A stretch of DNA of 63,808 nt, counting the filler. It is 6 parts of 6 records of this genome, joined end to end, with 100 filler letters (N's around TTAATTAATTAA, not from the genome) between each part and the next. Parts side by side here need not be neighbours in the genome. Positions count along the whole stretch, not along the records: positions 8,730 to 18,543 come from SRR31156797_20651; 5 more parts are not named here. One strand, written 5' to 3'. The position numbers and the translations under genes were made by a program. Positions 5,156 to 58,683 of this stretch are shown piece after piece. The notes below the pieces were generated by a model, which saw only the letters and a program-made list of their open reading frames with translations, did not search any database and was not told where the DNA came from. How positions within the stretch are numbered: the stretch's first letter is position 1; each line of letters opens with the position of its first letter.

Positions 5156-8100
5156 ATGAAACGACGAAACTTTATAAAAACAACAGGTGCAGCCGGTGCA
5201 GTATTTTGCATGCTCACACCTCAAACAATAAAAGCATTTACAGATGGTAATTTTTCCGGATTAGAAAACAGTTTTGTTAATCCGCTAAAATCGGATGGCC
5301 CCTGGGCGGTTTGGCACTGGACATCGGCCAACCAAACAAAAGAAGGTGTTAAAAGCAACCTCGAAGGAATGGCTGAGGTTGGAATTGCTAGAGCCACCTT
5401 ATTCAGTTTCCCTCCTGGCGATGGTTTTCGGGGAAACACTGTGCTTGAAAATCCGGCGGCACCTCTTACTCCAGAATGGTTCGACTTAATGAACTATGCC
5501 GTTACTGAAGCCGGACACCTTGGAATTGAACTGGCTATTCAGATTTCTGCCGGTTGGGCAACTGCAGGAGGGTCATGGGTAAAACCCGAAGAATCGCAGC
5601 AACAAATTGTTTTTACCGAAGATACTTTTGAAGGTGGGAAAAAATACACCGGAAAACTGGAAAGACCACATATGCCACCAGCAAGTGAGTTTGGTCGCCG
5701 GAGTGAACCGATTCCTGAAAAATGGAGCAGTTACTATCGCGAGTTGGCTGTTTTGGCTTTCCCCGTGCCTGAAGACTGGGATAAAACAAATCTTACAGAA
5801 AATGCAAAAGTTACCTCAAACCTTGCCATAAGTGATTTTAACAAATTAACCAATCTTCAGAACAGTGAAAATGTATTAAATACAACAAATGCCGGCTGGA
5901 TTCAATTTGCTTTCGATGAGCCCTTTACACTTCGAACTATCACTATGAATCCGGGTAGTTACAACATGCCTGCTCATAGCATGGAAGTTCATGCAAGTGA
6001 TAATGGAGAATCGTTTCAAAAGATTGGAGAATTGGAACCGATGATGAACAGCTGGCAATCGACTGTTAATGAATTAACGCATGTAGTTCCGGAAACAAAA
6101 GCAAAATATTTTAGACTTGTATATAATCCAACAGCACCAAAAGCATACGATGAAGGCTGGTGTAATGGAACATACCGGGGGCCCAACCGAAGAGGATTTG
6201 GTGCATCAACAAATGCTGAATCCCAAATTGATCCCAGTACACCTATGACTGAAAGGATCGATCCAATTACGATTCGTTGCATAGAATTATCAAGTACGCC
6301 AAGAGTTCATCATTTTGCAGGAAAAACAGCCACCACCTGGGGATATAGCCGTCGTATAACTAACGAAGAAATGCCCGAAAGTGCTTGTTTAAAAACCAGT
6401 TCGATAATTAACCTGACTGAGAAATTAAAAGATGATGGTTCGATCGAAAACTGGACTCCGTCAAAAGGAAAATGGAAAATCCTGAGGATGGGATATACAA
6501 CAACCGGAAAAACCAATGGCACAGGAGAAGGACAAGGACTTGAAACCGATAAATTAAGCCCTGTTGGTGCCAGAGTTTCATTTAATGGCTGGTTCAAAAA
6601 AATTCTTGACCATGTGGGCCCGCGACTTTCGGGAAATGTAATAAAATCATTGAATTTCGACAGCTGGGAATGTCGAGCACAAAACTGGTCACCGATTTTT
6701 GCTGAAGAATTTAAAATGAGAAGAGGTTATAATGCCCTCGACTATTTACCTGTAATGGCCGGTATACCTATAGAAAGTGCCGATGTAACTGAAGGCTTTT
6801 TGTTTGACCTGCGAAGAACCATTGCTGATATGATAAGTGAAAACTTTATGGGAACGCTTAAGAAATTAGCACATGCACATGGTACTACAATTACACAAGA
6901 AGCGCAGCATCCTGCTTTGGCTGCCGATGGTATTTATGGACATAAATTTGTTGACGACACTGCCGGAGAATTCTGGGTAAATGTACAAAATAACTGGAAA
7001 CCCTGCGATATTGCCGATGCCGTAAGTGGTCAGCGCATCTATGGAAAAGGCCTTGCAGTTGCCGAGGCATTTACTGGTGGTGGATCGTGGAAGGAAAATC
7101 CTTATGATTTAAAAGCCATGGGAGACATGCATTTTGTAGATGGCATTACTAAAATGATGCTTCATTTATGGGCAGCACAACCCTACCCCGATCGCCTGCC
7201 GGGACAAACAGGGGCTGCCGGTACATATTTCAACGAAAACAACACCTGGATGATGAACGGAGGAAAAGCCTGGTTTGAATATATGAGCCGATGTCAGGCC
7301 CTGCTCCAACACAGCCATTCAGTTTCCGATGCACTTTATTTTGCTGGTGAAGATATTCCTTCAAGAGCATTAATTCAGCCAAAATATGGAAGTGCCTTTG
7401 TAACCGATCCTGCTCTTCCTGAAGGATATAAACACGACTCAATAAATCAGGAAGCCTTGTTAAACATGACAAGAGTGAAAAACGGAAGAATTATATTAGA
7501 TAGCGGAATGAGTTACCGGGTACTGGTATTACGTCCCGACAGGTTACTAACTCCACAGGTGGCAAATAAAATAAAAGAACTTGTTGCAGCTGGTGCCCAG
7601 TTAGTTGGACCAAAACCCATTGGTTCTCCAAGTCTTGAAATGTCAAATGACGCAAATCAACAGGTTAAAAAAGTAGCTGAAGAAGTTTGGGGAAATTTAA
7701 ACGGAACAACATTTACCGAAACAGTTTACGGCAAAGGACGTGTTTTCTGGGGAAAACCTATGGAAGATGTTATGAATGCTATTGCGGCTGATTCTGATGC
7801 TGTTTTCCTGAATCAACATGAAACCGAAACCGGAAAACCATTTAAAGCAACAGCTTTTCAACCCGACGGAATTAATGCAACAGCTATGGGGGCCGAACGA
7901 CAAGGTTGGGGATTTTTATGGAATCATCAAAAAGGTGATGAAGATTATGAATTTTACTTTATTTCAAACCAGGAACAAAAAGCATTATCGACAAATATTA
8001 GTCTTCGTATTCAAGGTAAAGTTCCTGAAATTTGGCATCCCGACACAGGAAAAATTGAAGATGCACCGATTTGGTTTGAAGAAAACGGAAGGACAATTAT

Positions 8101-8629
8101 TCCTATGGATTTTGATCCGGCTGAGTCTGTGTTTATTTTATTTCGCAAATCCGCAAAAAGTGTTGACCAGATAGTTGAAGTTACCGGAAATAACAAACTT
8201 AAATTAAAAGTTACAAATTCTGGTCTGGAAAAATGGGCTTCTGAAAATGGTCAGTGGAATCTTAAAACGAAGTCAGGACAAACAACTTCAATAATTGCAA
8301 ATGGAGTGCCTGCAGCAGTTTCTGTTGAAGGTGAATGGGATGTAACTTTCCCTCTTCTTTCAGGAAAAACGAAACAGGTTAAATTACCGCTTGGTTCTTG
8401 GACGGAGCAAAACGATGAAGAAATTAAATACTTTTCAGGAACAGCTGTTTATCAAAAAAATATTCAAATAAGTGAAGAACAGTTAGCCGAAAACCAAAAA
8501 ATTTTTCTTGATTTAGGCGTGGTGAAAGATATTGCTGAAATAAAAGTCAATAAAAAGAAACTGGGTATTGCATGGAAACCGCCATATTGTGCAGAAATAT
8601 CAGATATTGCTGTTGTTGGAGAAAACAAA
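5156..8629 (+). CDS. GH106-family alpha-L-rhamnosidase-like glycoside hydrolase, Tat-exported (3' partial)
   Basis: MKRRNFIK twin-arginine leader; GWATAGGSWV, GLETDKLS, DSWE, GEFW and AEAFT motifs. Runs into the linker. Confidence 0.85.
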
Positions 8630-8729
8630 NNNNNNNNNNNNNNNNNNNNNNNNNNNNNNNNNNNNNNNNNNNNTTAATTAATTAANNNNNNNNNNNNNNN
8701 NNNNNNNNNNNNNNNNNNNNNNNNNNNNN
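8630..8729. other. Artificial contig linker 1
   Basis: N-run + TTAATTAATTAA (stop codons in all six frames) + N-run; 100 bp. Confidence 0.99.
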
Positions 8730-8748
8730 ACGGAATTCATTCCGTAGT
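8730..8748. repeat. REP-like palindrome at contig end
   Basis: ACGGAAT-TC-ATTCCGT followed by AG, at the assembly break. Confidence 0.45.
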
Positions 8749-8767
8749 GGTTCAGTTATTTCGGTTT

Positions 8768-9208
8768 TTATTTATTTCGGTTTTTATATGCTTTACATGC
8801 TCCGGTTGACCACAATGCCCAGGCAATTAGTACAGGTTGAAAGAATAACCTGATAAAACGGGTCTTATCGGTATCTAAGCCAAAAGCATCTACTTTATTA
8901 ATGTACTGTGCAATATTTCCAGGGAAAATCAGGATAAAAAAGATAGCTGCGCTAAAACCAACCAGGGCTTTCCATTTGGGTAAGGCTATCAGCGATAGAC
9001 CCAAAGCTATTTCTACTACTCCCGATAGTAAAACAGTAACATCGTCGGGTATTGGAACCCAGTTAGGAACTTGGGCCACAAATTCCGCGCGAGCTACAGT
9101 TAAATGTGCATAGCCGGCATATGCAAGGGCAGCACCCAGCAATAATCTAAAAATACTTCTGAACCAATGTACTTTAACACCGTACGTCCAGTCAAATAGT
9201 TTATTCAT
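8768..9208 (-). CDS. DoxX-like membrane protein
   Basis: Four hydrophobic segments; SGVVEIALG, IFPGNI and RLFFQP motifs. Likely ATG start at 9208. Confidence 0.8.
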   Translation of the reverse strand: MNKLFDWTYGVKVHWFRSIFRLLLGAALAYAGYAHLTVARAEFVAQVPNWVPIPDDVTVLLSGVVEIALGLSLIALPKWKALVGFSAAIFFILIFPGNIAQYINKVDAFGLDTDKTRFIRLFFQPVLIAWALWSTGACKAYKNRNK

Positions 9209-9250
9209 GTCTTTTATTTTGATGAGCAAATTTAAATGTCGAATGCGATA

Positions 9251-9287
9251 CAAATGTAGTAAGTTTTATAAATATCGCAAGCGATAT
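9251..9287 (-). promoter_or_regulatory. Bacteroidota -7 promoter element plus palindromic operator for the DoxX-like gene
   Basis: TACATTTG (TAnnTTTG) on the minus strand at 9251-9258; perfect dyad ATATCGC-AA-GCGATAT at 9272-9287. Confidence 0.55.
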
Positions 9288-9658
9288 AAATAAATAATTT
9301 TCGCGAGATATTGATTTGTCGCTCTATTGTTGTTCTATTGCAATGTGTTTTCTTTTTTAAGGAAAGACTCGATGTACCTTTAATAGAGGCGAGAGAGCAC
9401 TATTCAAAGGTAAGTTTAATGGATATGCGGTATTATTTGGCTGTTGAAGATGTGGACATTAAGACTGTCGTGAAATTTTGGTTGGTTTGTTAAAGTTCAT
9501 GCTAAACGCAGGAATGTGTATATATTAATTATCGATCCTTTAGTCAGAATTTAACTGGAGCCATATTCATGAGAGCTTAACACTTGCTTTTGTGTATAGT
9601 ACCTTCAGTCTTTTCTCAATTAATAAGACTGAGAAATGAATACTACATTTTACAATAC

Positions 9659-9688
9659 AAAAACCACTCCTTATTGAGAAGTGGCTTT
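9659..9688 (-). terminator. Intrinsic terminator of the DUF6261-like gene
   Basis: Minus strand AGCCACTTCT-CAATA-AGGAGTGGTT followed by a T-run, about 25 bp after the stop. Confidence 0.7.
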
Positions 9689-9712
9689 ATTATAGCGGGG
9701 TGATATGTTTAC

Positions 9713-10441
9713 TTATTCTGATAATTCTTCTGGCTCCGTTTTTTTGCTTCGTTGTGCCACGGTATTGTTATAGCCATCAATTAGCTCCTCAAGGTTATTA
9801 ACCAATGTGCTCAGGGCATCCGATGGATTAATGACCATATAAGCGTTTATAAACTCATCTAAAATTTTGTATTTATTCAAGGCATCTTTTAGGAGTTCAG
9901 CAGTCTTTACCTGATCGTTATAATCTGCTTTTTCTTCTACCCTGTTTAAATATTGTGTATTAAACTGCTCATTAGTATTGGTCAAATGAGCCACAATATC
10001 ACTTAAACTTAATAATTCAATAGCATCTACAGCTTTCTGTTCCTGCAGGTCGTTACAAATGTTTTTTAGCACTGTAGTTTCTGCCTGGTAGTTCATTTTA
10101 TAAATGCCTTTCCCATATTTATCAATGGTGCGTAATACCATGCGGGCAGCCTTGGCCTTGGCTTCATCAAAATGATCGGTGTAGGCATCCGAAACTTTAC
10201 GCATCGTTTTAATATCATTGTCGCGTAAGTTATCCAGCTGCGATAATGTTAGTGTAAATTCGCTGGCCTGTGCCTGCTTAAAGCTGGTACTTAAGCGTTG
10301 GTTGGCCTGATTTAAATCATTTACCTGGTTTTCGATGTTTAAACTGCCTACATCTGCTTTTAAGCAAATGCTCACCACATCTTCTAAAAATTGTAGTTGT
10401 TCAGAATTTCTGAACCACGATAATCTAGGTTTATGTTCCAT
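9713..10441 (-). CDS. DUF6261-family (HagB/HagC-related) helical protein of unknown function
   Basis: 242 aa, amphipathic-helix pattern; RNSEQLQF, LSQLDNLRD and KYG..I..MNYQAET..L..I..DL patterns recognised as DUF6261-like. Confidence 0.75.
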   Translation of the reverse strand: MEHKPRLSWFRNSEQLQFLEDVVSICLKADVGSLNIENQVNDLNQANQRLSTSFKQAQASEFTLTLSQLDNLRDNDIKTMRKVSDAYTDHFDEAKAKAARMVLRTIDKYGKGIYKMNYQAETTVLKNICNDLQEQKAVDAIELLSLSDIVAHLTNTNEQFNTQYLNRVEEKADYNDQVKTAELLKDALNKYKILDEFINAYMVINPSDALSTLVNNLEELIDGYNNTVAQRSKKTEPEELSE

Positions 10442-10670
10442 TCTTTAGTTTTTATAGAACTCAATTGGTTAAAGTAACTACTCTAATCATTTGAGTTAAG
10501 AGGTTAAAAAAATTGTAACACCCCGCTTTTATTTCAGCGTTATTAGCTTTCAATTATTATGCTAAAATATGTATGATGTTATATCTAATTTAAGCTATAT
10601 AATTAAGAGGTAAAAGTTTGATATTGAAAATCAGGAGTTAAAGAACTGAAGATTGATGTAGTAAGGTATG

Positions 10671-10860
10671 CGCATGTGCGAAATACTTGTTGGCTAATTC
10701 AGGAACCAAATCGCAATTGCGAAATGCTTCCTGAGCCGTTCAGCAATGAAATCGCAGCTGCGAAGATAGTGCTGACTTTGTCGGCAATCCATTCGCACCT
10801 ACAAAAGTCTTCCTGACTATGTTTGAAAGAAAACTGCAGTTGCGAAAAGCTTCCTGACCA
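10671..10860. repeat. Non-coding tandem array with exact 41-bp period (about 4.6 units), each unit carrying two dyads
   Basis: Units start at 10671, 10712, 10753, 10794 and 10835. Consensus CGCA-NN-TGCGA-N5-TTSCTGA-N5-TCRGSAA-N5-T. Confidence 0.9.
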
Positions 10861-10866
10861 ATGAGG

Positions 10867-11481
10867 CTAATCTTTTCTTTGCATTACCACCCAAATGTAG
10901 TTTTGCTCTGTATTAAATGGCGTAATATGTAATTCCTCAAAGCATTCTATAAGCTCAAAATAAGTATTAAAGACTGCGCAAAATTTTTCTTCAGAATATT
11001 GACTAACGGGTAAGCCGCTGCATTTATCAGGACCACTCTCCGAAAAAGTGCCTAAAATTAGATAAGCACCTTTACGTATAGTTTTGGCTGCTTTATCTAC
11101 ATATTTCAGAATATCTTTTTCCTGTGTTAGAAAATGAAATACTGCTCTATCGTGCCATATATCTAAATTTTTAAGTGAGGTGCATGTTAAGATATTGCTT
11201 TCAATGAAGTTAACATTGGCTTTTTTTACCCGCTGTTTGGTTCTTTCTAATCCATTACGCGAAATATCTAATAAGCTTATATTATGGTATTCATCTTTCA
11301 CCAGCTTTTCAATCAACCTGGAATTACCACCCCCTATATCTGCTATGGTTATGTTTTTATCTCCATTTGCATATTTAGTAATTAAGGCAAGTGAGGTGAG
11401 CGGGTCTTCCTGAAACCAACCTACTTGCCGATCTGACTTGGAACTATAAATATCTTCCCAATGTTGTTTTACATCTTTCAT
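10867..11481 (-). CDS. Class I SAM-dependent methyltransferase
   Basis: DIGGG motif I, LLDIS and WHDRAVFHFL. Start is either 11481 or 11547 (TAATG overlap with the upstream stop). Confidence 0.85.
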   Translation of the reverse strand: MKDVKQHWEDIYSSKSDRQVGWFQEDPLTSLALITKYANGDKNITIADIGGGNSRLIEKLVKDEYHNISLLDISRNGLERTKQRVKKANVNFIESNILTCTSLKNLDIWHDRAVFHFLTQEKDILKYVDKAAKTIRKGAYLILGTFSESGPDKCSGLPVSQYSEEKFCAVFNTYFELIECFEELHITPFNTEQNYIWVVMQRKD

Positions 11482-11546
11482 AATATAGACAGGTATAAGA
11501 AATATTCGCTCCAAAACTATACATAAAGCTTTGAAGCGAAACAACA

Positions 11547-11909
11547 TTATTGATGATCAACATCCTTTTTCTTTGGAGCTCTTTCGTAATGACAGCAACC
11601 GGGTAAAGCCTCGTATGTTTCATCTTTGGCTTTGTGCATGTTGGTATCATGACCTGCTTTGGCGATAGCCATATGCACCTTGTGTACATCTGTTTTTGAA
11701 GTATCCAGCTTTACTACGATCATTTTGGTTTTTTTATCCCAATCAGCTGAACTTACACCCTCAACCGAATTGGCGGCTTTTTCAATGCGCTTTTCGCACA
11801 TGCCGCAGTTACCATACACTTTGAATTTTACTGTTTTTGCTTGTCCAAACATGGCACCTACACTTATAAGCACCATTACCATTGTTAAATAAATTGCTTT
11901 TGTTTTCAT
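11547..11909 (-). CDS. Secreted heavy-metal-associated (HMA) domain protein
   Basis: Signal peptide, GNCGMC metal-binding motif and C-terminal LPGCCHY. Confidence 0.9.
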   Translation of the reverse strand: MKTKAIYLTMVMVLISVGAMFGQAKTVKFKVYGNCGMCEKRIEKAANSVEGVSSADWDKKTKMIVVKLDTSKTDVHKVHMAIAKAGHDTNMHKAKDETYEALPGCCHYERAPKKKDVDHQ

Positions 11910-11957
11910 ATTACATGTGTTTTAAATTAGTAAATGATTTGATGTTTTGTTTTTATA

Positions 11958-12039
11958 TGTTGCGGGTTACGAGTTAAAGGTTTCGGGTTACGAGTTGGCG
12001 AATTTGATATTTTAACCCGCAACACGTCAGCTCGCAACA
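11958..12039. repeat. Heptamer-repeat hairpin element 1 (GTTRCGR units, then their inverse)
   Basis: GTTGCGG GTTACGA GTTAAAG GTTTCGG GTTACGA GTTGGCG; perfect 12-bp inverted repeat at 11958-11969 and 12013-12024. Confidence 0.8.
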
Positions 12040-12046
12040 GTGTTTT

Positions 12047-13639
12047 TTACTCTCTTGTATATTGACAGCATTCGGGTAAATTATTATACACCTCATCGTC
12101 TGCTTTTTCTATTTCTGTATCGTAGCCGGCTTTGGCTATTGCTTTATGTATTTCAGACAGTTTTACCTTATCTGAATTAAAGGAAACATGAATCATTTTG
12201 GTTTCCTGACTCCAATCAGCTTCATTAACTCCGGCAAGGGCTTTAACGGCTGTTTCAATAGTTTCTTCGCACATGCCACAGTTTCCTGAAACTTTAAATG
12301 TTTTGTGTTGCAGGTTGTGCGTTGCGGGTTTTTCTTGTTGAATATTCATATTATCCATATCATGATGTTCGTGTCCTGTAGATGTTTTACCACTTTGAGT
12401 ATTCATCATACTTGATTTTCCTGCCAATTGAGCTGCTGCATCAATTTTAAATACACCATTGGTTGCTATTTCTTCACCTTCTGATAAGCCGTTGGCAACT
12501 ACATAGAAATTCCCTGCTTCTGCACCAAGAGTTATCTCACGGTAAATGAAAGAAGCTGTTTCTCGTCCCGGTACTTTTACATAAACCACAGCTCTTTTAC
12601 CTGTCCAAAGGATGGATGATTTTGGAATAAGCAACTCGTTTGTATTTTCAGCAATGTTCGATTTAAGAATTCCGCTAGCGAACATTTCTGGTTTCAATTG
12701 TTGCTTTGGATTATTTAATTCTACACGAACCTGTGCTACTCTTGTTTGCGCATCAATAAATGGGTCGATGTAGGTTACTTTACCTTTAAATGTTTCACCC
12801 GGAACTGACTGAATAGTGAAGTCGATATTATCTCCCTTCTTAACCCAGGGCAAATCACTCTCATATGCATCAAACATTACCCAAACCTTTGATAAATCAA
12901 TTACCTCAAACAAGGCTGAGCCTTCTTTTACATAGTCTCCAATGGCGACATGTCTTTTGGTTACTGTACCTGTAATGGGCGAAAGAATCTCGAAATATAT
13001 TTTGGGTTCACCATTATTCTCGATGGCATCAATTTGTTGTTCGGTCAAGTCCCATAGTTTTAATTTAGTACGAGCAGCCTTGTAAAGAGAAAGATTGGCA
13101 TCTTTGTATTTAACAGCTTCTAACAACTCTTTTTGTGCAGTAATCAATTCAGGGGAATAAATAGTACCCAACTTTTGCCCTTTACTAACCTGTTGACCTG
13201 TGTAATTGATTAACAGCTTCTCGATACGACCACCAAATCGGGCTGTTAGTTCTGAAATTCTACGTTCATCAGCTTTTACTTTACCTAATAGCTGAACGTT
13301 CTTTTCAGGTACACCATGCATTACAACTGTTGTTTGAACCGATGCCAATGCTAATGCCGATTCGGTCATTTGTATTTCATTCGGGTCAACATGCTCACCT
13401 TCTACAGAACCAGTTTCCATAGGCACTAAGTCCATAGCACAAATAGGGCATAATCCCGGTTTTTTCTGTTTGATTTGTGGGTGCATAGAGCAAGTCCAAA
13501 TTGTTTCTTCGGCTTCGGGATGTTCCTTATGGTTGTGAGCCTCTGATGATTTTGAACCTCCTAATATTGCCCAACCAAGCAGGATGCCTAGTATCAAGGT
13601 TGGTGCTATGATTTTTATGTGTTCTTTTATCTTTTTCAT
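12047..13639 (-). CDS. CusB-like RND efflux periplasmic adaptor with N-terminal metal-binding domain and C-terminal HMA domain
   Basis: WTCSMHPQI...CPICAMDL; membrane-fusion core (YSPELITAQ, LKPEMF); C-terminal GNCGMC...LPECCQY. Confidence 0.9.
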   Translation of the reverse strand: MKKIKEHIKIIAPTLILGILLGWAILGGSKSSEAHNHKEHPEAEETIWTCSMHPQIKQKKPGLCPICAMDLVPMETGSVEGEHVDPNEIQMTESALALASVQTTVVMHGVPEKNVQLLGKVKADERRISELTARFGGRIEKLLINYTGQQVSKGQKLGTIYSPELITAQKELLEAVKYKDANLSLYKAARTKLKLWDLTEQQIDAIENNGEPKIYFEILSPITGTVTKRHVAIGDYVKEGSALFEVIDLSKVWVMFDAYESDLPWVKKGDNIDFTIQSVPGETFKGKVTYIDPFIDAQTRVAQVRVELNNPKQQLKPEMFASGILKSNIAENTNELLIPKSSILWTGKRAVVYVKVPGRETASFIYREITLGAEAGNFYVVANGLSEGEEIATNGVFKIDAAAQLAGKSSMMNTQSGKTSTGHEHHDMDNMNIQQEKPATHNLQHKTFKVSGNCGMCEETIETAVKALAGVNEADWSQETKMIHVSFNSDKVKLSEIHKAIAKAGYDTEIEKADDEVYNNLPECCQYTRE

Positions 13640-13653
13640 AATATTTCCTTTTT

Positions 13654-13707
13654 GTTGCGAGTTACGGGTTTCGAGTTGGTTTTAACTCGCAACCTGCAAC
13701 TCGTAAC
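13654..13707. repeat. Heptamer-repeat hairpin element 2
   Basis: GTTGCGA GTTACGG GTTTCGA GTT-GGTTTT-AAC TCGCAAC CTGCAAC TCGTAAC. Confidence 0.8.
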
Positions 13708-13709
13708 CT

Positions 13710-14945
13710 TTATTTTCCTTGTAAATGCTCCATAAATGCCACCGCAGCTTCTCTATCAGCAATGGCCTTCTGCATTTCCAACCCATATTTTAAAAGCTTT
13801 CGTTCCATTCTTAAAATCTCCACAAAATCAATATTGTTTGTGGCGTAATTCGATTCAAGGATAGAAAGAGACTTTTGAGCCAATTCAGTTTGTTCCTGAT
13901 AAAGTGAAAATCTGCGATTAGCATCCTGATAATCTTTCCAAATACTCTCAAACAAAACGGTAAGCGTGTTTTGTTTATCCGATTTTTCAAAGCTTTTTGC
14001 TTCTTGCAGATAAATAACTTCCTGAACTTTGGCTTTATACTTTGAGCGATATAAAGGAATATTGATTCCTACTGTTGGAAAAACAAAAGCATCCTGCCCG
14101 GCATTGCTTGCAGTTGAATTACCTTCACCGATAAAAGCATATTCTAAACCAACAGAAAATTGTGGTAAACCTTCTTTTGTAGCAGACTTTTTACGGTACT
14201 CCAATCCTTCTAACTGATAGTCGAAAGAACTTAAAGCATTGTTGTTAGCCATAATGCTATCCAATTCCGTTTGTTTGGAGAGAAGAATACTTTCTGAAAG
14301 TTCGGTTGCAATTTGAATAACTGTTGCATCATCAACATTCAATAAGTTATTGAACTTCACCCTTAAAACAGTTGAATTGTCTCTTAACAAAGCCAACTGA
14401 TTTTCAAGGTCGTTGATTTCCATTTCAACCCTGTAAGCATCAACAGCCGAAGCTAATCCGGATTCTACTTTAATGTTTGCCAAATTTTTGAAAGATGACA
14501 AAATCTCGATATTCTCCAATGTAATTCCTATTGCTTTTTCTGTAAAGAACAGGTTGTAATAAGTTGCTTTTACATCATAGAATAATTTCGATTTGGATTC
14601 TTCAAACAGTTCGTATTTGGCTTTTGCCAAAGCTTCTACTGAATTTTCACGAGCAGATAAAGTACCAAACCAGGGAAACATTTGCGAAGCAGATATTTTA
14701 GCCTGCTGTGGACCCAGTCGTGTCTCTATTGGCTGTACAAAATAACCAAAAGCAACTGTCGGGTCGGGTAAAGCTCCAACTTGAGGAACTCTTTCCAATG
14801 CTGCCATATACTCATTAAACTTAACTTTTAAACCCGGATTATTTTCTGCTGCGGTTTGAAGATATTGGTTTAATACCTCCTGAGCAGAAAGTGTTCCTGA
14901 TAAGGCAATGAGTGCGATGGTCATTATTATCACTATTTTTTTCAT
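13710..14945 (-). CDS. TolC-family outer membrane efflux protein
   Basis: Signal peptide; ALPDP, SQMFPWFG and INIPLY; lies between the RND pump and the adaptor. Confidence 0.9.
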   Translation of the reverse strand: MKKIVIIMTIALIALSGTLSAQEVLNQYLQTAAENNPGLKVKFNEYMAALERVPQVGALPDPTVAFGYFVQPIETRLGPQQAKISASQMFPWFGTLSARENSVEALAKAKYELFEESKSKLFYDVKATYYNLFFTEKAIGITLENIEILSSFKNLANIKVESGLASAVDAYRVEMEINDLENQLALLRDNSTVLRVKFNNLLNVDDATVIQIATELSESILLSKQTELDSIMANNNALSSFDYQLEGLEYRKKSATKEGLPQFSVGLEYAFIGEGNSTASNAGQDAFVFPTVGINIPLYRSKYKAKVQEVIYLQEAKSFEKSDKQNTLTVLFESIWKDYQDANRRFSLYQEQTELAQKSLSILESNYATNNIDFVEILRMERKLLKYGLEMQKAIADREAAVAFMEHLQGK

Positions 14946-14949
14946 AACC

Positions 14950-17900
14950 TTATTGATTTAATGAGTTAGACATCTTTTTAACCTTTCTCTCTTGCCACAT
15001 GCTGTACAAAACAGGCACAACAAATATGGTAAGTGTGGCAATGAGCATACCTCCAACGGACGGAATTGCCATCGGAACCATTATATCTGAACCTTTACCT
15101 GTTGAAGTCAATACAGGCAATAGGGCAATAATGGTTGTTGCCGTTGTCATCATTGCCGGGCGAACCCTTTTTAATCCGGCTTCCAAAACGGTAGCTCTCA
15201 CTTCCTGAATAGATTCGGGTTCTTTTTTATCGAATAGCTGTTTAAGGTAGGTACTGATTAACACTCCGTCATCGGTAGCAATACCGAATAGGGCGATGAA
15301 GCCAACCCAAACCGCAACACTCAGATTAATGGTGTGTATCTGAAACATATCCTGAACATGAATACCGCCTATTGAGAAGTTCATAAACCAAGACTGGCCA
15401 TACAACCAAAGCATGATGAACCCGCCAGAAAAAGCAACAAAGATTCCGGTAAAGATTAAGCTTGCTGCTGTTACTGAACGGAATTGAAAATACAGAATAA
15501 GAAAGATTACTATTAGCGAAATAGGGATTACTATCATAAGCCTTTTAGTAGCCCTGATTTGATTTTCGTAATTCCCTGTGAACTTATAGTTTACACCCGA
15601 AGGAACATTAAAAACACCTTGTTTTGTTTTTTCATTCAAGTAATCCTGTGCGTTTTCAACCACGTCAACCTCTGCAAATCCCTCTTTTTTATCGAAAATT
15701 ACATAGCCAACTAAAAAGGTATTTTCGCTCTTAATCAGTTGCGCTCCACGAGTGTAAGAAATAGTAGCAAGCTCGCCCAATGGAACTTGAACGCCCGAAG
15801 GTGTTGCCACCAATATCTTTTTCAAATCTTCGGGGTTATCCCTGTATTCTCGTGCATAGCGAACCCGAACAGGGAAGCGCTCACGACCTTCAACCGTTGA
15901 TGTTAGTTTCATGCCTCCAATAGCACTACTCAAAGTCATCTGTAAATCGGCAATTGTTAAACCGTAGCGAGAAATGGCTGTTCTGTCAATATCAAGCTCT
16001 AAATACGGTTTACCCACTACACGGTCGGCAAAGACTGACATTGGTTCAACTCCCTCTACATGCTTTAAATGGTTCTCCAATTCATAACCAACCTTTTCAA
16101 TCGTTTCAAGGTCTGGTCCAAAAACTTTTATTCCCATTGGCGCACGCATACCTGTTTGCAGCATGACCAATCGTGTTTGTATAGGTTGAAGCTTTGGAGC
16201 AGAAGTTAATCCCGGAATACTTGACTGCTTTACTATCTCATCCCAAATATCACTTGGTGATGAAATGTGTTCACGCCATTGCCTAAAGTATTCACCCGAT
16301 TTATCTTCAATCAACTGCTTTCGCTCAATTACTCTGAAATCATCTGTTTGGGGATTGTAAGTTGAACTATCAGCCAACAGAAAAGAACCGTCTTTTTCTG
16401 TTTTAAATCGAATACGGTGACCATTTTCATCCAACATGTATTCCGATTTGTAATTGATAACATTCTCGTACATTGAAGTTGGAGCAGGGTCAAGAGCAGA
16501 ATTTACACGTCCCCATTTACCGATTACATTTTCAACTTCGGGAATAGCGTTCACCTTCTTATCCAACATGCGGATAACCTCTAAGTTTTCTTCGATACCC
16601 GAATGAGGCATAGTTGTTGGCATTAACAGGTATGAACCTTCATCGAGGGCAGGCATAAACTCCTTACCAATGCCTGGAAAAGTTTCACTAAATGATTGCC
16701 AAGAATCACTTTCTTTAATACTGTCAGGCATAAATGAAAAGACCTTATTAGCACCCTGCCAACTTAATAAGCCAAATAGTATTACAATAATTGGAATGCT
16801 TAAAAATTGCCATTTATTAGCCAAAGCCCAGGTTAATATCCTTGGATAAACCCGAACAACCAATAGCATTGCTGCTAAAATCACTCCAATTAATATTCCT
16901 GAAAAAATCAGATTTGAGGCATCGCTGTTTTGTGCGCCTAATGGCATCCATTCCTTGGTTAGCAGCCAAACGACAATTAAAGCTACTATGCCAATATTAA
17001 TATAGTTAGGGAACTCTTTACGAGCTTCACTCCATTTAAAATCTAAAAGGTTATTTACTCCAATTCCAACAATTGCGATTGCAATAAATACTTTTCCAAA
17101 GAATAGGAAGCTGATACCAAGTAATACTAAAATTCCATTTAGTATCTGTTTGGTTTTTTTCTTGTCAATTTTAATTGAGAAAATGATATGCGCCAATGCC
17201 GGAATGATTACCAACCCAATTATTAGTGCTGAAATCATGGCAAAGGTTTTTGTAAATGCCAATGGTCTAAAAAGCTTTCCTTCCGCTGCTTGCATGGCAA
17301 ATACAGGCAAGAAACTAACAATAGTTGTTGTTAAAGCTGTAATTACCGCAGGAGCAACTTCAACTGTTGCTTCATAAATTACATTAAGTAGTTTTTTACT
17401 CTTGTTTTCAATGAGTTCGATGTGCCGTATTATATTTTCTGTGAAGACGACCCCCACATCAACCATTACACCAATTGCAATGGCAATACCCGAAAGAGCT
17501 ACGATATTGGCATCTACACCAAATCTGCGCATGGCTATAAAGGTCATTAGAACGCCAATTGGCAATAAGCTTGATATTAGAAATGATGCACGAAGATTAA
17601 GTACCAGGATAATGATTACAATGATACTGATTAGCACTTCCAACGTTAATGCTTCTTCGAGTGTGCCAAGGGTTTCTTTAATTAAACCTGTTCGATCGTA
17701 AAACGGAACAATGGTCACTTTAGAAACGGTTCCATCATCTAAAATTTTAGATGGTAATCCCGACGATATTTCTTCAATTTTATCTTTTACATTATTAATA
17801 ACCTCCAAGGGGTTTGCACCATATCTGGCTACAACCACACCACCAACAGCTTCCGCACCGCCTTTGTCTAAACCACCTCTACGGGTAGCTGGCCCAAAGC

Positions 17901-18543
17901 TCACATTAGCCACATCTTTGATACGAATTGGAATGTTGTTTTTAACGCTCACAACACTCATCTCAATATCTTCAAGACTTTTGATGTAACCTAATGCACG
18001 AATTAAATACTCAGCACGGTTAAATTCAATGGTTCTTGCGCCTATATCAAGATTGCTCTTTTTAACGGCATTCATAATTTGAGTAACCGTAACCCCGTGA
18101 GCTTTCATGGCATTGGGGTCAATGTCAACCTGATATTCTTTAACAAATCCTCCAATTGAAGCAACCTCAGAAACACCTTTGGCAGAAGTTAATCCATACT
18201 TTACATAGAAGTCTTGAATGGTTCTTAGTTCGTGGGGATCCCATCCGCCATTTGGATGGCCTTTTTTGTCCCGACCTTCGAGTGTGTACCAATAAATCTG
18301 ACCAAGAGCAGTCGCATCTGGTCCTAATGATGGTGTTACACCTTCGGGCAATGTTCCACTTGGAAGGGAATTGAGCTTTTCTAAAATTCGTGTTCTACTC
18401 CAATAAAACTCCACATCTTCATCAAAAATGATGTAGATGCTTGATAATCCAAAAATGGAGTTGCTACGAATGGTTTGAACACCGGGAATCCCTAATAAAG
18501 CTGTTGTTAAAGGATAGGAAATCTGGTCTTCAATATCTTGTGG
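14950..18543 (-). CDS. CusA/CzcA-family heavy-metal RND efflux permease (5' partial)
   Basis: Frame is open to the contig edge. LGPDATALG, AIGVMVD, EGKLFRPLAFTKT, RVRPAMMT and MVPMAIP motifs. Confidence 0.93.
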   Translation of the reverse strand, partial: PQDIEDQISYPLTTALLGIPGVQTIRSNSIFGLSSIYIIFDEDVEFYWSRTRILEKLNSLPSGTLPEGVTPSLGPDATALGQIYWYTLEGRDKKGHPNGGWDPHELRTIQDFYVKYGLTSAKGVSEVASIGGFVKEYQVDIDPNAMKAHGVTVTQIMNAVKKSNLDIGARTIEFNRAEYLIRALGYIKSLEDIEMSVVSVKNNIPIRIKDVANVSFGPATRRGGLDKGGAEAVGGVVVARYGANPLEVINNVKDKIEEISSGLPSKILDDGTVSKVTIVPFYDRTGLIKETLGTLEEALTLEVLISIIVIIILVLNLRASFLISSLLPIGVLMTFIAMRRFGVDANIVALSGIAIAIGVMVDVGVVFTENIIRHIELIENKSKKLLNVIYEATVEVAPAVITALTTTIVSFLPVFAMQAAEGKLFRPLAFTKTFAMISALIIGLVIIPALAHIIFSIKIDKKKTKQILNGILVLLGISFLFFGKVFIAIAIVGIGVNNLLDFKWSEARKEFPNYINIGIVALIVVWLLTKEWMPLGAQNSDASNLIFSGILIGVILAAMLLVVRVYPRILTWALANKWQFLSIPIIVILFGLLSWQGANKVFSFMPDSIKESDSWQSFSETFPGIGKEFMPALDEGSYLLMPTTMPHSGIEENLEVIRMLDKKVNAIPEVENVIGKWGRVNSALDPAPTSMYENVINYKSEYMLDENGHRIRFKTEKDGSFLLADSSTYNPQTDDFRVIERKQLIEDKSGEYFRQWREHISSPSDIWDEIVKQSSIPGLTSAPKLQPIQTRLVMLQTGMRAPMGIKVFGPDLETIEKVGYELENHLKHVEGVEPMSVFADRVVGKPYLELDIDRTAISRYGLTIADLQMTLSSAIGGMKLTSTVEGRERFPVRVRYAREYRDNPEDLKKILVATPSGVQVPLGELATISYTRGAQLIKSENTFLVGYVIFDKKEGFAEVDVVENAQDYLNEKTKQGVFNVPSGVNYKFTGNYENQIRATKRLMIVIPISLIVIFLILYFQFRSVTAASLIFTGIFVAFSGGFIMLWLYGQSWFMNFSIGGIHVQDMFQIHTINLSVAVWVGFIALFGIATDDGVLISTYLKQLFDKKEPESIQEVRATVLEAGLKRVRPAMMTTATTIIALLPVLTSTGKGSDIMVPMAIPSVGGMLIATLTIFVVPVLYSMWQERKVKKMSNSLNQ

Positions 18544-18643
18544 NNNNNNNNNNNNNNNNNNNNNNNNNNNNNNNNNNNNNNNNNNNNTTAATTAATTAAN
18601 NNNNNNNNNNNNNNNNNNNNNNNNNNNNNNNNNNNNNNNNNNN
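18544..18643. other. Artificial contig linker 2
   Basis: Same 100-bp N/TTAATTAATTAA/N linker. Confidence 0.99.
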
Positions 18644-21600: not shown

Positions 21601-23468
21601 GTAGTGTTCTATTGACTGGTATTACAGACTCAGAGTTATACACAGCCAACGGTGATCTCATAGAAGTCACTGTAAGTGAAAATCAAACTTCGATAACGGG
21701 TACGGTTGACGATACCACGGTATTTGAGATTAAACTTACTCCAGAAACTGGGCAGTGGGAATATTATCAGTATGTTGAACTCGCTGATGGTGAGAAGGTT
21801 CAGTTTACTTATGATGTCATTGATGCTGATGGTGATTCCGCGTCGTCAACAGTTGAACATGCCCCTGAACTGAATGTTGAGAGTTATGTGGACTTCAGTC
21901 AAAGTGACGATGTTAAAGTTGGAACCATCGTTGCTACTTATTCTACGACTGATCAGGACGGCGACGAAGTCACCGTAACACTGAGTGATACAACTTATTA
22001 CTCGCTAGATGATCAAGGTAATGTTGTATTAACAGAAGCGGGCGTTGCACTGGTTACAGCGGCCGAAGATTTACCAGAATTCACGTTAACCCCTAATGAT
22101 GGTGAACTAACGGGAATCTCAGTTTCAGTAGATCCAACGGTCACACCTGTTTCTACCTCAGGGCTAAGTGGTGAGTTTTATAATGTTGGTTATCAACTAG
22201 GTACGATTGCTCAAGCGTTAAATGTTATTGCTACGCAATCAACCAATGCTACATTTACCTCAACAGAAGTTAATTACTCAGGTTCTAACTATTACGATTT
22301 GGGTGATATTTATGCGAATGGTAATACGAGTGACGAACTTGAGGAATGGGTTGAAAATGATGGTGACTCAAGTCTTAAGCAATGGCTTGGTGATGACTCT
22401 GATACTATTGAATATCAAAACGTCGCGGAATCTAATGATGTAGTGGTAAAACTCTCTGGTGGTGTGGTGCTCAATGCTGGAACTTACGCTATTAAAGTTA
22501 ATGCAGATGATGGTTACCAAATTACAATAGACGGTGTAGTCGTTGCATCATATGACGATAATACATCGGAGTTGACAAACGAATTTTCATTCACCGTACT
22601 AGAAACTGGAACCCACGAAATTGAAATAGTCTACTGGGACCAAGGCGGGGCGTACGTTCTTGAAGTTTTGCTCGATAATGGTGGCGACAACGGTTATCAA
22701 GTGCTTGGTAGTGATGCCTATCCAATAACTTCTACCTATCAAGAGTTTGGAGATGATTCTATTGTTACCCGTAGTTTCGAAGGGTTTACAGGTAATACAG
22801 AGGATGCAATTTCGGACTATCAAAATGCTGACTATGATCATACATATAAAGATGATCATACATTCGGTTCATTGAGGGACGATCATATTACCGGTAAAGA
22901 TATACGTAGTGACAAGTCTGATATATTGTTCAGTAGCTCAGGTGATGATTGGCTGGAAGGTGGTAAAGGTAGAGATCATCTTTATGGGCAATCAGGTGAT
23001 GATTTATTAGAAGGACAGTCGGGTAGCGATTATTTATATGGAGGGTCTGGTAATGACATCCTAGTGGGGGGGGTGGATACAGACTACTTATATGGTAATG
23101 AGGGCAACGACGTTCTGATAGGTGGTAGCGGCCACGATGCCTTAACGGGTGGGGAAGGTAGTGATCTGTTTGTATTAGCTAAAGGTGAGGGCAGTTCAGA
23201 TACCATTATGGACTTTGATGTGGCTGAAGATGCTTTAGATGTTTCGGATTTGCTCGACCAGACTTCGGATGATATGACCTATGCAGAGATTCAACAGTAT
23301 TTGAATGAAGAGATTAACGTCCAAGCTAGTAGTGATGGTTCTGGAACGTTGACTGTTGATAATACTAGTAGTTCCGTAATATTTGAAAGTGGTTCGAATT
23401 TGAGTTCGGTAGATACAATTTCCGTTCTATTCAATAACCAAGAATATAAAGTAAACGTAGATTCTTAA
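18645..23468 (+). CDS. Large type I-secreted RTX adhesin, FrhA-like (5' partial)
   Basis: VCBS/cadherin-like repeats (ITGANDAAII, GEWTYTL); PA14-like domain (GLSGEFY...ADDGY...YWDQGG); GGxGxDxL RTX nonapeptides; DTIMDF...DALDVSDLL T1SS-type C-terminus; very acidic. Confidence 0.9.
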   Translation: MSGSATLDITPVNDAAVISGGAKSKVQEDSVTSTSGDLDIVDPDSGEQAFNPLTINDDGWGTFDIKENGEWTYVLNNDATKVQALDNSSEALTRTFTVTSVDGTPHTITVYITGANDAAIIEGTFTGTVTEGDLSDVTKVSGSISISDVDADDSPVFENTEIVGEYGTLKLVDGEWTYTLDQSKVQGLNDGDKVTDTITLVASNTTDKDSQDITITIIGTNDAPIAIADSETVNEGSTVVVSESVLTNDTDAENDSLTVVNIAGKGEVTENEDGSFTVTTALGGIVVMDADGTYTYTAPDYLDHSSSETIQDSFSYLASDGVNNSAWTTVTIDVVDTGITAQDDYDEVSSETNLATGNVVTNDLQNDTDPDAVVTSVTYNGKTYDMLESGVLTIEADTGTLVIDSDGDYTFTPSESSRSQIVVDDVINSSDVSVYASTDRSIEPSGESVEKNGNSGLGVASSSDQGNQLDGNESLVFALNQAASSVSTTLKNNGNGNDDEIEVSVYDIDRNDISQEVSISIVNHVVTVTSDSGDIGYVVFGLSSDADSNDKYRIDETISVTYIENSSSSSKEVFTYTVEDGDGDESSAQLTIGGIDSVNDAPVITLSEGADSVVVSEEGLTEANADTDGDSDSTNEVQATGSFVVSDEESADSDLTVELVAPTETLYSGGTEIEWTIVDGKLVGTAGREEVINVSLTKDSSNSYSYTVTLLAALDHELSGVEDTLTFDFNVSVSDGVNSITETISVTVEDDSPEASASVIINPVATDSSESHTVLGSYTFTRSSTTGCNTENEYQFTSDDSNKSITVTAVGLDGTTHEELSFSDGGIGVSSYKQGSCNTGFDDRFNSEVDYKYVDGNWSSEQIVIDLGENIAYGLTVDFSYIYSGEGADSESGIVYFYRDGKLLETQTQTFSSNETSGDYAGNFYVEEGGFDKVVFEATSNGNDENQWDNSDFAIKSVAFIGLSDATVIASDQGEITADFGADGAGSVLLTGITDSELYTANGDLIEVTVSENQTSITGTVDDTTVFEIKLTPETGQWEYYQYVELADGEKVQFTYDVIDADGDSASSTVEHAPELNVESYVDFSQSDDVKVGTIVATYSTTDQDGDEVTVTLSDTTYYSLDDQGNVVLTEAGVALVTAAEDLPEFTLTPNDGELTGISVSVDPTVTPVSTSGLSGEFYNVGYQLGTIAQALNVIATQSTNATFTSTEVNYSGSNYYDLGDIYANGNTSDELEEWVENDGDSSLKQWLGDDSDTIEYQNVAESNDVVVKLSGGVVLNAGTYAIKVNADDGYQITIDGVVVASYDDNTSELTNEFSFTVLETGTHEIEIVYWDQGGAYVLEVLLDNGGDNGYQVLGSDAYPITSTYQEFGDDSIVTRSFEGFTGNTEDAISDYQNADYDHTYKDDHTFGSLRDDHITGKDIRSDKSDILFSSSGDDWLEGGKGRDHLYGQSGDDLLEGQSGSDYLYGGSGNDILVGGVDTDYLYGNEGNDVLIGGSGHDALTGGEGSDLFVLAKGEGSSDTIMDFDVAEDALDVSDLLDQTSDDMTYAEIQQYLNEEINVQASSDGSGTLTVDNTSSSVIFESGSNLSSVDTISVLFNNQEYKVNVDS

Positions 23469-40659: not shown

Positions 40660-40759
40660 NNNNNNNNNNNNNNNNNNNNNNNNNNNNNNNNNNNNNNNNN
40701 NNNTTAATTAATTAANNNNNNNNNNNNNNNNNNNNNNNNNNNNNNNNNNNNNNNNNNNN
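40660..40759. other. Artificial contig linker 3
   Basis: Same 100-bp linker. Confidence 0.99.
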
Positions 40760-49833: not shown

Positions 49834-49933
49834 NNNNNNNNNNNNNNNNNNNNNNNNNNNNNNNNNNNNNNNNNNNNTTAATTAATTAANNNNNNNNNNN
49901 NNNNNNNNNNNNNNNNNNNNNNNNNNNNNNNNN
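49834..49933. other. Artificial contig linker 4
   Basis: Same 100-bp linker. Confidence 0.99.
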
Positions 49934-58583: not shown

Positions 58584-58683
58584 NNNNNNNNNNNNNNNNN
58601 NNNNNNNNNNNNNNNNNNNNNNNNNNNTTAATTAATTAANNNNNNNNNNNNNNNNNNNNNNNNNNNNNNNNNNNNNNNNNNNN
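58584..58683. other. Artificial contig linker 5
   Basis: Same 100-bp linker. Confidence 0.99.

Follow-up and report, generated by a model that had tools for sequence, protein, structure and literature searches.

A 41-bp tandem array upstream of a DUF6261 gene and its 41/42-bp counterparts in other Bacteroidota

DUF6261 (PF19775) is a widespread Bacteroidota family of no known function. Here we show a non-coding tandem array ahead of one of its genes, the period of that array, the link of such arrays with DUF6261, the turnover of their sequence and a moderate purifying selection acting on them. Judging from the genome sequences sampled, DUF6261 genes are almost always preceded by an array of this sort, in which the 41/42-base spacing is kept and the sequence changes completely. 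The array at the center of this study was found in a 63,808-nt stretch of DNA, which as a whole is called the window, and it belongs to what is apparently an unpublished class of gene-linked phased arrays with a period of 41 or 42 bp before DUF6261. Literature searches turned up no account of such arrays ahead of DUF6261 or hagB genes; an Atlas cluster of the family has been given the automatic name "putative hemagglutinin HagB", and a 1995 paper on hagB reportedly mentions repeats upstream. FopS sRNAs are unrelated. In bacteria it is unusual for a cis element to hold a four-turn spacing through complete turnover of its sequence and to be inherited together with a single gene family.

Results

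The contig carrying the array

The window consists of six contigs joined by spacers of the form N44-TTAATTAATTAA-N44 and is not one molecule. Its contigs range in GC content from 31 to 62% and in gene content from Bacteroidota-like (SusD, GH106) to gammaproteobacteria-like (MASE6-GGDEF, RTX), so they probably come from several source organisms. Where an open reading frame was called through a spacer, as at 5156-8677, its length is artificially inflated. The contig that carries the array looks marine and Cytophagales-like. Its minus strand reads, in order, CusA-like pump (truncated), outer-membrane factor, CusB/HlyD, HMA protein, methyltransferase, array, spacer, DUF6261 and a MauE/DoxX-like gene. 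The array begins 6 nt past the methyltransferase stop codon and occupies positions -431 to -195 relative to the DUF6261 ATG, that is, the 5' side of the PF19775 gene. The positions of these features are collected in Table 1.

Table 1. Positions of the array, its internal sites and its neighbors in the window, and settings of the arrays found away from DUF6261 genes
Feature	Position	Strand	Remarks
Spacers between contigs	8630-8729, 18544-18643, 40660-40759, 49834-49933, 58584-58683		
Contig carrying the array	8730-18543		9.8 kb; ends do not overlap
Terminator-like hairpin and T-run	9660..9688	-	just 3' of the DUF6261 stop codon; closes the module
DUF6261 (PF19775) gene	9713..10441	-	242 aa; E 2.5e-31
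AT-rich spacer, array to DUF6261 start codon	10442..10670	-	~230 nt; 65-80% A+T
Core of the 41-bp-period array	10671..10860	-	4.6 units; strand given is the one that encodes the downstream DUF6261
Eight sites TGCGA-N5-TTSCTGA (<=2 mismatches)	10677..10857	alternating +/-	starts 10677(+), 10699(-), 10718(+), 10740(-), 10759(+), 10781(-), 10800(+), 10841(+)
Dyad A, perfect 12-bp palindromes TCGCA-NN-TGCGA	10711-10722 and 10752-10763		41 bp apart
Dyad B, best copy TTCCTGA-N5-TCAGCAA	10728..10746		S position not complementary between arms
Class-I SAM methyltransferase gene	10867-11547	-	last gene of the Cus-like operon; stop codon at 10867
Candidate promoter TACATTTG, exact TAnnTTTG	10892..10899	-	inside the methyltransferase 3' end
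Solo array	upstream of recR		two genomes; exact -7 box between array and ATG
Solo array	past the terminator of an M28 peptidase gene		two genomes
Solo array	between a TPR gene and transaldolase		
Solo array, different type	between convergent fmt and smr genes		one extra locus in its own genome
Solo array, another type	before a CHAP-domain gene		one extra locus in its own genome

The start of the contig (8730-8800) has a 16-bp palindrome and, next to it, an exact 16-bp repeat in two tandem copies (8756-8787), and two other sequences fork at 8759/8761 in the contigs of the run, which marks a repeat boundary in the assembly graph. The HMA-CusB-OMF-CusA module (11578-18543) recurs with ~80-95% likeness in contigs of several unrelated runs, metagenomes and isolates alike, and looks like a horizontally shared metal-resistance cassette. 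The methyltransferase-array-DUF6261-DoxX part is absent from those other runs; three other sequencing runs cover the Cus operon part only (11578-18540), with nothing over the array, and no RNA run is listed among those containing the sequence. Many diverged copies of the module are also present in the run that contains the window, and the best relative found for the CusA-like protein was 69%. Methyltransferase homologues (36-43% identity) occur on many plasmids, several of them of metal-rich origin, and no relative of the window methyltransferase was found among metagenome contigs. The other genes of the contig gave distant matches only, to Cytophagales and other plasmids. A reading of the contig's high word depth in the run as that of a multicopy plasmid was withdrawn, because the 915 million letters are contigs rather than reads and the run holds many organisms.

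An exact 41-bp register with two dyads per unit

A first-pass annotation made from the letters alone had described a non-coding array of five units with an exact 41-bp period. The five quoted units were found to be exact, and the register is 41 bp and gap-free from 10671. Autocorrelation over 10641-10880, the check that had been proposed, agreed: it gave 0.558 at lag 41, 0.532 at lag 82 and 0.530 at lag 123, and none of the remaining lags from 5 to 129 exceeded 0.36. A match fraction above 0.5 extends over ~10636-10872. Stop codons fall in all six frames (three per strand) and the 41-bp period cannot be divided by 3, which bears out the non-coding assignment. The 41-bp array is thus a confirmed observation. 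When the whole window was scanned for periodicity (lags 25-69, 100-nt windows, threshold 0.55), only two regions emerged, the array and a 54-bp coding repeat at ~22938. The latter belongs to a stretch of 54-bp (and 27-bp) periodicity at ~22900-23100 within a 1607-aa cadherin/RTX-repeat reading frame and is an ordinary coding repeat. Tandem Repeats Finder overlooks the array because its units are only ~55-65% alike. The separate Logan assembly of the best-matching run carries 8730-12461 with 0 differences and is probably of the same sample as the window, hence not independent data.

The internal structure of the units had been described as one 17-bp site, TGCGA-N5-TTSCTGA, alternating in orientation. 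Exact copies of this site number four in the 63.8 kb, all of them inside the array and alternating in orientation. With up to 2 mismatches allowed, 16 were found in the window, where 8.85 +/- 2.82 are expected, and 8 of these lie in the array; a further minus-strand site predicted at ~10822 is too degenerate to match. Each unit holds two dyads 20.5 bp apart, and neither TCGCA-N2-TGCGA (10711, 10752) nor TTSCTGA-N5-TCAGSAA (10728) has a copy elsewhere in the window. Only one of four units has dyad B arms that are complementary at the S position, and the right halves of units 4 and 5 are degenerate. Plus and minus sites also differ systematically beside TGCGA (AAA vs TTT), so the true unit is 41 bp and not 20.5 bp. 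The alternating-site description fits the window array but is not a rule for the family, most arrays of which have two different dyads per unit. The companion claim, that spacing is fixed and the N positions are free, stood for the gap-free register; the contrast between conserved blocks and N positions was not significant, as the 12 fully conserved columns (9.0 +/- 1.9 expected) were reached in 407 of 5000 permutations.

Arrays of the same period precede distant DUF6261 genes

PF19775 and the window protein were searched in two samples of 401 genomes each, one spread over the phylum to which a Muribaculaceae MAG belongs and the other drawn from a single order. Positive genomes numbered 5 in the phylum sample and 24 in the order, often with several paralogues per genome, and the homologues recovered are 14-35% identical to the window protein. 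Forty loci were oriented by the gene, and the 450 nt upstream and the first 450 nt of coding sequence were each compared with 30 shuffles; the 40 rows represent 39 distinct loci (L146 repeats L132) from ~25 Bacteroidota genomes. The best upstream period was 41 or 42 and lay above all 30 shuffles in 31 of the 40 rows, which corresponds to 30 of the 39 distinct loci (29 of 38 when the window is set aside). The coding control never gave 41 or 42 as best period above shuffles, its best scores of 0.39-0.50 being scattered over various lags. Many of the loci are orthologues or paralogues, and these counts are not of independent events.

Restricting the count to full-length DUF6261 genes, 31 of 34 have an array. 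Of the nine misses, three concern genes that are intact (L136, L154, L159) and five concern matches that are weak, cut or broken (L134, L138, L161, L169, L169b); the ninth is L137, whose 41-bp array sits farther upstream than the 450 nt examined. At this last locus (G174), two ~120-nt repeats with hairpin potential and a 22-nt perfect palindrome are found at ~930-1300, between the 41-bp array and DUF6261. When 277,490 bases were scanned at a single threshold, 41/42 periodicity adjoined DUF6261 in the window and in 9 of the 12 large loci, and a single further 42-bp match lay elsewhere; other periods were rare and mostly due to coding or CRISPR-like repeats. Repeats of 46- and 69-bp period at the edge of L181 (1-600) and a RAMP-family gene near DUF6261 in L176 (4308-5720) are probably nearby CRISPR-Cas loci by coincidence.

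The period is 42 bp in 23 of the 30 arrays and 41 bp in 7, with about 2 to more than 12 units per array and an array end that lies 0 to ~250 nt ahead of the ATG. The consensus units are unrelated between subfamilies and loci, and their GC content runs from 20 to 67%. The unit of the window array, aligned with the commonest unit type, scored 2, which is not significant (null -3.3 +/- 2.5, maximum 8). The proposal that spacing is constrained is supported, since arrays before distant DUF6261 homologues keep 41/42 bp despite unrelated sequence. Homologous arrays, a fixed period and few indels were found, where the first-pass annotation had named a lack of homologues, no fixed period or frequent indels as grounds for giving the proposal up. 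The window array extends the class beyond the commonest unit type with its 41-bp period, its 230-nt spacer and its place at the end of a metal-resistance operon.

The modules made of array and DUF6261 gene are flanked by unrelated chromosomal housekeeping genes (nusA-infB, lgt, rarA, carB, gyrA) and by a SusD gene. Two paralogous loci of one genome share a 972-nt segment of 81% identity that runs from ~34 nt before the array to ~50 nt short of the gene end; it spans both elements, and array and gene therefore move as one unit.

This chromosomal setting bears on another proposal of the first-pass annotation, a centromere-, iteron- or recombination-like role. A plasmid centromere of the sopC or parC kind, or an iteron replication origin, would account for tandem ~42-bp units with inverted repeats, as in sopC, and for the AT-rich stretch that adjoins the window array. 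It is nevertheless very unlikely. A Pfam scan of the neighboring genes found no ParA, ParB, ParR or Rep gene on the array contig, and no recombinase gene lies nearby; no DnaA box was found at <=1 mismatch, the spacer at 10442..10670 included, and the ends of the contig do not overlap. In addition to the housekeeping neighbors of related modules, the nearest relative of the window protein (P0001, 93% identical; the next are 60% and 42%) lies on a 5.75-Mb contig, DUF6261 has no match in 72,556 plasmid records, and a Flammeovirga plasmid record is without DUF6261. Iteron origins have direct repeats of 17-22 bp spaced by ~22 bp beside a rep gene, together with DnaA boxes; the sites of the window array alternate in orientation and no Rep family occurs on the contig. 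The centromere, iteron and recombination roles are accordingly not supported.

Solo arrays are conserved between species

A pattern of the commonest unit type was used to look for same-type 42-bp arrays away from DUF6261, and several such solo arrays were found (Table 1, which also lists one extra locus for each of two quite different array types). Where tested, cognate arrays occupy 2-5 loci per genome. The exact -7 box that follows the recR array places this array upstream of the core promoter. Unit number is kept between orthologous solo arrays, which have diverged by 9% where recR third codon positions differ by 28%, and by 17% where third positions of the other neighbor differ by 34%; gaps number 1 in 176 nt and 6 in 175 nt, respectively.

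Two further observations concern the surroundings of solo arrays. Before the recR array (L185 1793-1925 vs L186, from G028 and G566), an AT-rich stretch of 132 nt is 99% identical at loci whose recR third positions differ by 28%; this strongly conserved stretch is non-coding. Downstream of another solo array, at L183 ~2060-2100 (G028) and L184 ~2135-2160 (G476), there is a short GATCTGTGT-type tandem repeat, and ~1 kb lacks any open reading frame of >=80 aa on that strand, which suggests an unannotated non-coding gene or a long leader.

The palindrome TTTCSGG-N4-CCSGRAA occurred 67 and 58 times genome-wide as against 0-3 times in the reversed control. It was considered as a genome-wide regulon and rejected: the 20 places examined outside known arrays lie in long open frames, save for one further array, so the excess is codon-driven. 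A 16.5-base pattern gave lone chance matches and no array in genome contigs, among the at least 120 stretches listed, and a pattern scan of viral contigs gave 3 single matches that were taken as chance.

It is extremely unlikely that the arrays are neutral, decaying tandem duplications without function. Such an origin would agree with the low likeness of the units in the window array and with the lack of significant block conservation there. Against it, an array of this kind is present at 30 of the 39 distinct DUF6261 loci, among proteins only 14-35% identical to that of the window, and arrays diverge more slowly than synonymous sites.

A second possibility is a selfish or mobile element, namely a MITE- or REP/BIME-like minisatellite that travels with the DUF6261 gene, or is maintained by it, and has no regulatory role of its own. 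The extra intergenic loci of same-type arrays in the same genomes (recR, M28 peptidase, TPR/transaldolase, fmt/smr, CHAP) and the joint duplication of array and gene in the 972-nt segment are what such an element would leave behind, and a precedent exists in the Porphyromonas gingivalis elements MITE464/MITEPgRS, for which up to 14 tandem "Repeat C" units, 41-nt direct repeats, are described in passages of two reports (PMC2575886, PMC4596501). The window array has no terminal inverted repeats around it, only imperfect matches of 15-26 nt, and no transposase family appeared in Pfam scans of the window ORFs, hence no RAYT (IS200/IS605-like) gene. Copy number is low (2-5 loci per genome where tested), the motif has no other copy in the window, and the exact 39-bp palindrome pattern gave 0 matches in JGI metagenome contigs. 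The solo arrays are moreover positional orthologues between species that diverge more slowly than synonymous sites. On balance we regard a mobile minisatellite as unlikely.

Transcription of the arrays and the leader RNA alternative

The first-pass annotation had offered a chain of small RNA hairpins as its alternative. In this reading the array belongs to a structured 5' leader of the DUF6261 transcript, and its tandem hairpins would work at the RNA level, by affecting stability, controlling translation or titrating a protein. TAnnTTTG is the -7 promoter motif of Bacteroidota. Nine of the 30 loci, the window among them, have an exact copy no more than 100 nt ahead of the array, as against ~1.5 expected from the background rate, and the arrays of L132, L140, L142 and L147 abut the ATG (within 0-8 nt); many arrays are therefore probably transcribed. 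In the window the box lies ~27 nt upstream of the start of the periodic region and ~35 nt ahead of the first matched site, and no terminator separates the methyltransferase stop codon from the array. No exact TAnnTTTG was found in the spacer (10442..10670). The box at 10892-10899 is thus a candidate promoter, from which the array would join a ~440-nt leader.

Folding of the arrays gave a mixed picture. The window array folds better than its shuffles on the strand of the gene (z -4.0), as it does on the other strand (-3.4), and z was below -2 in 20 of 30 arrays. The remaining 10 did not reach this value on the sense strand; the sense strand was the more stable in just 9 of 30 arrays, the antisense being as good or better in 21. 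Among 40 aligned units of the commonest type, sense-strand mismatches of the GU and AC types were balanced (62 vs 71), pairing was 72.3% vs 69.7% with shuffled partners, and the covariation score was reached by 17 of 500 shuffles. Dyad A of the window array would give a stem of only 4 bp. An Rfam search over 9500-12000 gave 0 matches at E <= 1; the arrays of 8 other loci likewise matched no family, and on 3 more nothing reached the gathering score. Finally, a role as RNA gives no reason for a fixed 41-42-nt period over unrelated sequences. The hairpin alternative is thus weakened by the mismatch balance and by covariation barely above that of column shuffles, and keeps the good fold of the window array in its favor; we hold a leader RNA to be possible, at well below an even chance.

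Two other readings that involve expression of the arrays were rejected. An exact -7 box is found inside only 1 of 30 arrays, which does not fit tandem promoters. A translated minisatellite is not supported either: a stop-free sense frame is present in 10 of 23 period-42 arrays vs 15 of 23 for antisense.

Discussion

A phased docking lattice as the favored reading

The weakness of the RNA signatures, together with a four-turn period kept over unrelated sequences, leads us to favor a function at the level of DNA. The array would be one instance of a conserved non-coding element that accompanies DUF6261 genes, placed on their 5' side as head-to-tail units and inherited and duplicated together with the gene. 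Its period, held at 41-42 bp, would correspond to four turns of B-DNA, and helically phased docking sites would line up molecules of a sequence-specific protein along a single helix face; the bound protein, probably dimeric, would then control DUF6261 transcription. That the array acts mainly as DNA, as a four-turn docking lattice tied to DUF6261 expression, is a reading to which we give an even chance. A phased protein-binding lattice had also been the preference of the first-pass annotation, and the conservation of spacing across unrelated sequences argues for it; from this we infer protein binding, helical phase as the constrained quantity and transcriptional control as the output.

Several observations fit the docking lattice less well. 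Ten of the 30 arrays lack a significant dyad or fold signal, so a model of dimers on palindromes is not general. Same-type arrays are also found in places with no expected promoter, such as the interval between the convergent fmt and smr genes. The conserved period could also have arisen by concerted evolution, without selection on helical phase. Phase or copy-number mutants of the array offer a handle on DNA geometry as a constraint, and the array itself offers a bait for the putative binding factor.

DUF6261 as a possible partner of its array

The DUF6261 protein was modeled as a nine-helix, all-helical bundle (pLDDT 91). Structure searches with this model returned generic four-helix bundles only, with Z up to 10.7 over ~110 residues, a range common for helical proteins, and no DNA-binding fold was matched. 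The family belongs to no NCBIfam or PHROG family and has no solved relative by sequence. Its median pI of 5.2 is acidic.

A more speculative idea, which we consider rather doubtful, is that DUF6261, alone or with a partner, recognizes its own four-turn-phased array, that the two diversify together, giving each paralogue an array of its own, and that solo arrays mark other loci such as recR, tal and fmt/smr. If true, Bacteroidota would have a new gene-linked system of satellites or landmarks, with a logic like that of parS-ParB or REP-RAYT and unrelated parts. Should the binder be DUF6261 itself, both its DNA-recognition fold and the chromosomal landmark would be of a new kind.

Comparison with known systems

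One likeness in period is to Repeat C of P. gingivalis. In the relevant passages of Naito 2008 (PMC2575886) and Klein 2015 (PMC4596501), Repeat C is part of MITE464/MITEPgRS, a MITE with ISPg1-type terminal inverted repeats and Repeats A and B that is dispersed at ~20 loci. Compared by description rather than by sequence, both are tandem direct repeats of ~41 nt with variable copy number in Bacteroidota. Unlike Repeat C, the window array has no Repeat A/B or ISPg1-type flanks, and the link with DUF6261 is absent from the passages on Repeat C in these papers.

BIME-2 and REP elements share with the arrays their intergenic palindromic units in alternating orientation, their frequent position just past a stop codon and their presence at several loci; as in REP-RAYT, cognate repeats are linked to one gene. 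They differ in that the period is 41-42 bp here and ~100 bp there, that the arrays occupy 2-5 loci, that the units have no GTAG-type tag, and that the linked gene is DUF6261 and not RAYT.

The partition site sopC of plasmid F consists of 12 units of 43 bp and is bound by SopB; parC/ParR and other operator-centromere arrays sit ahead of the gene for their binding protein. Like sopC and parC, the arrays are made of head-to-tail units of ~41-43 bp, each with an inverted repeat, in exact register beside one gene. They differ from these sites in having no partition ATPase or ParB/ParR-like gene, in the chromosomal location of the modules and in an adjacent DUF6261 protein that is an acidic helical bundle without a DNA-binding fold; DUF6261 arrays also differ in sequence from locus to locus, some of them without dyads.

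Oligomeric repressors that bind on one face of the helix offer the last parallel: ARG boxes are paired ~21 bp apart, and NrdR boxes are spaced by an integral number of turns. The palindromes of these operators are ~18-20 bp long and have centers about two turns apart, comparable to the spacing of the dyads in the window array. ARG and NrdR operators, in contrast, are 2-4 identical boxes used across a regulon, whereas the arrays before DUF6261 have from 3 to more than 12 units, often with two alternating dyad types, and are specific to their locus.
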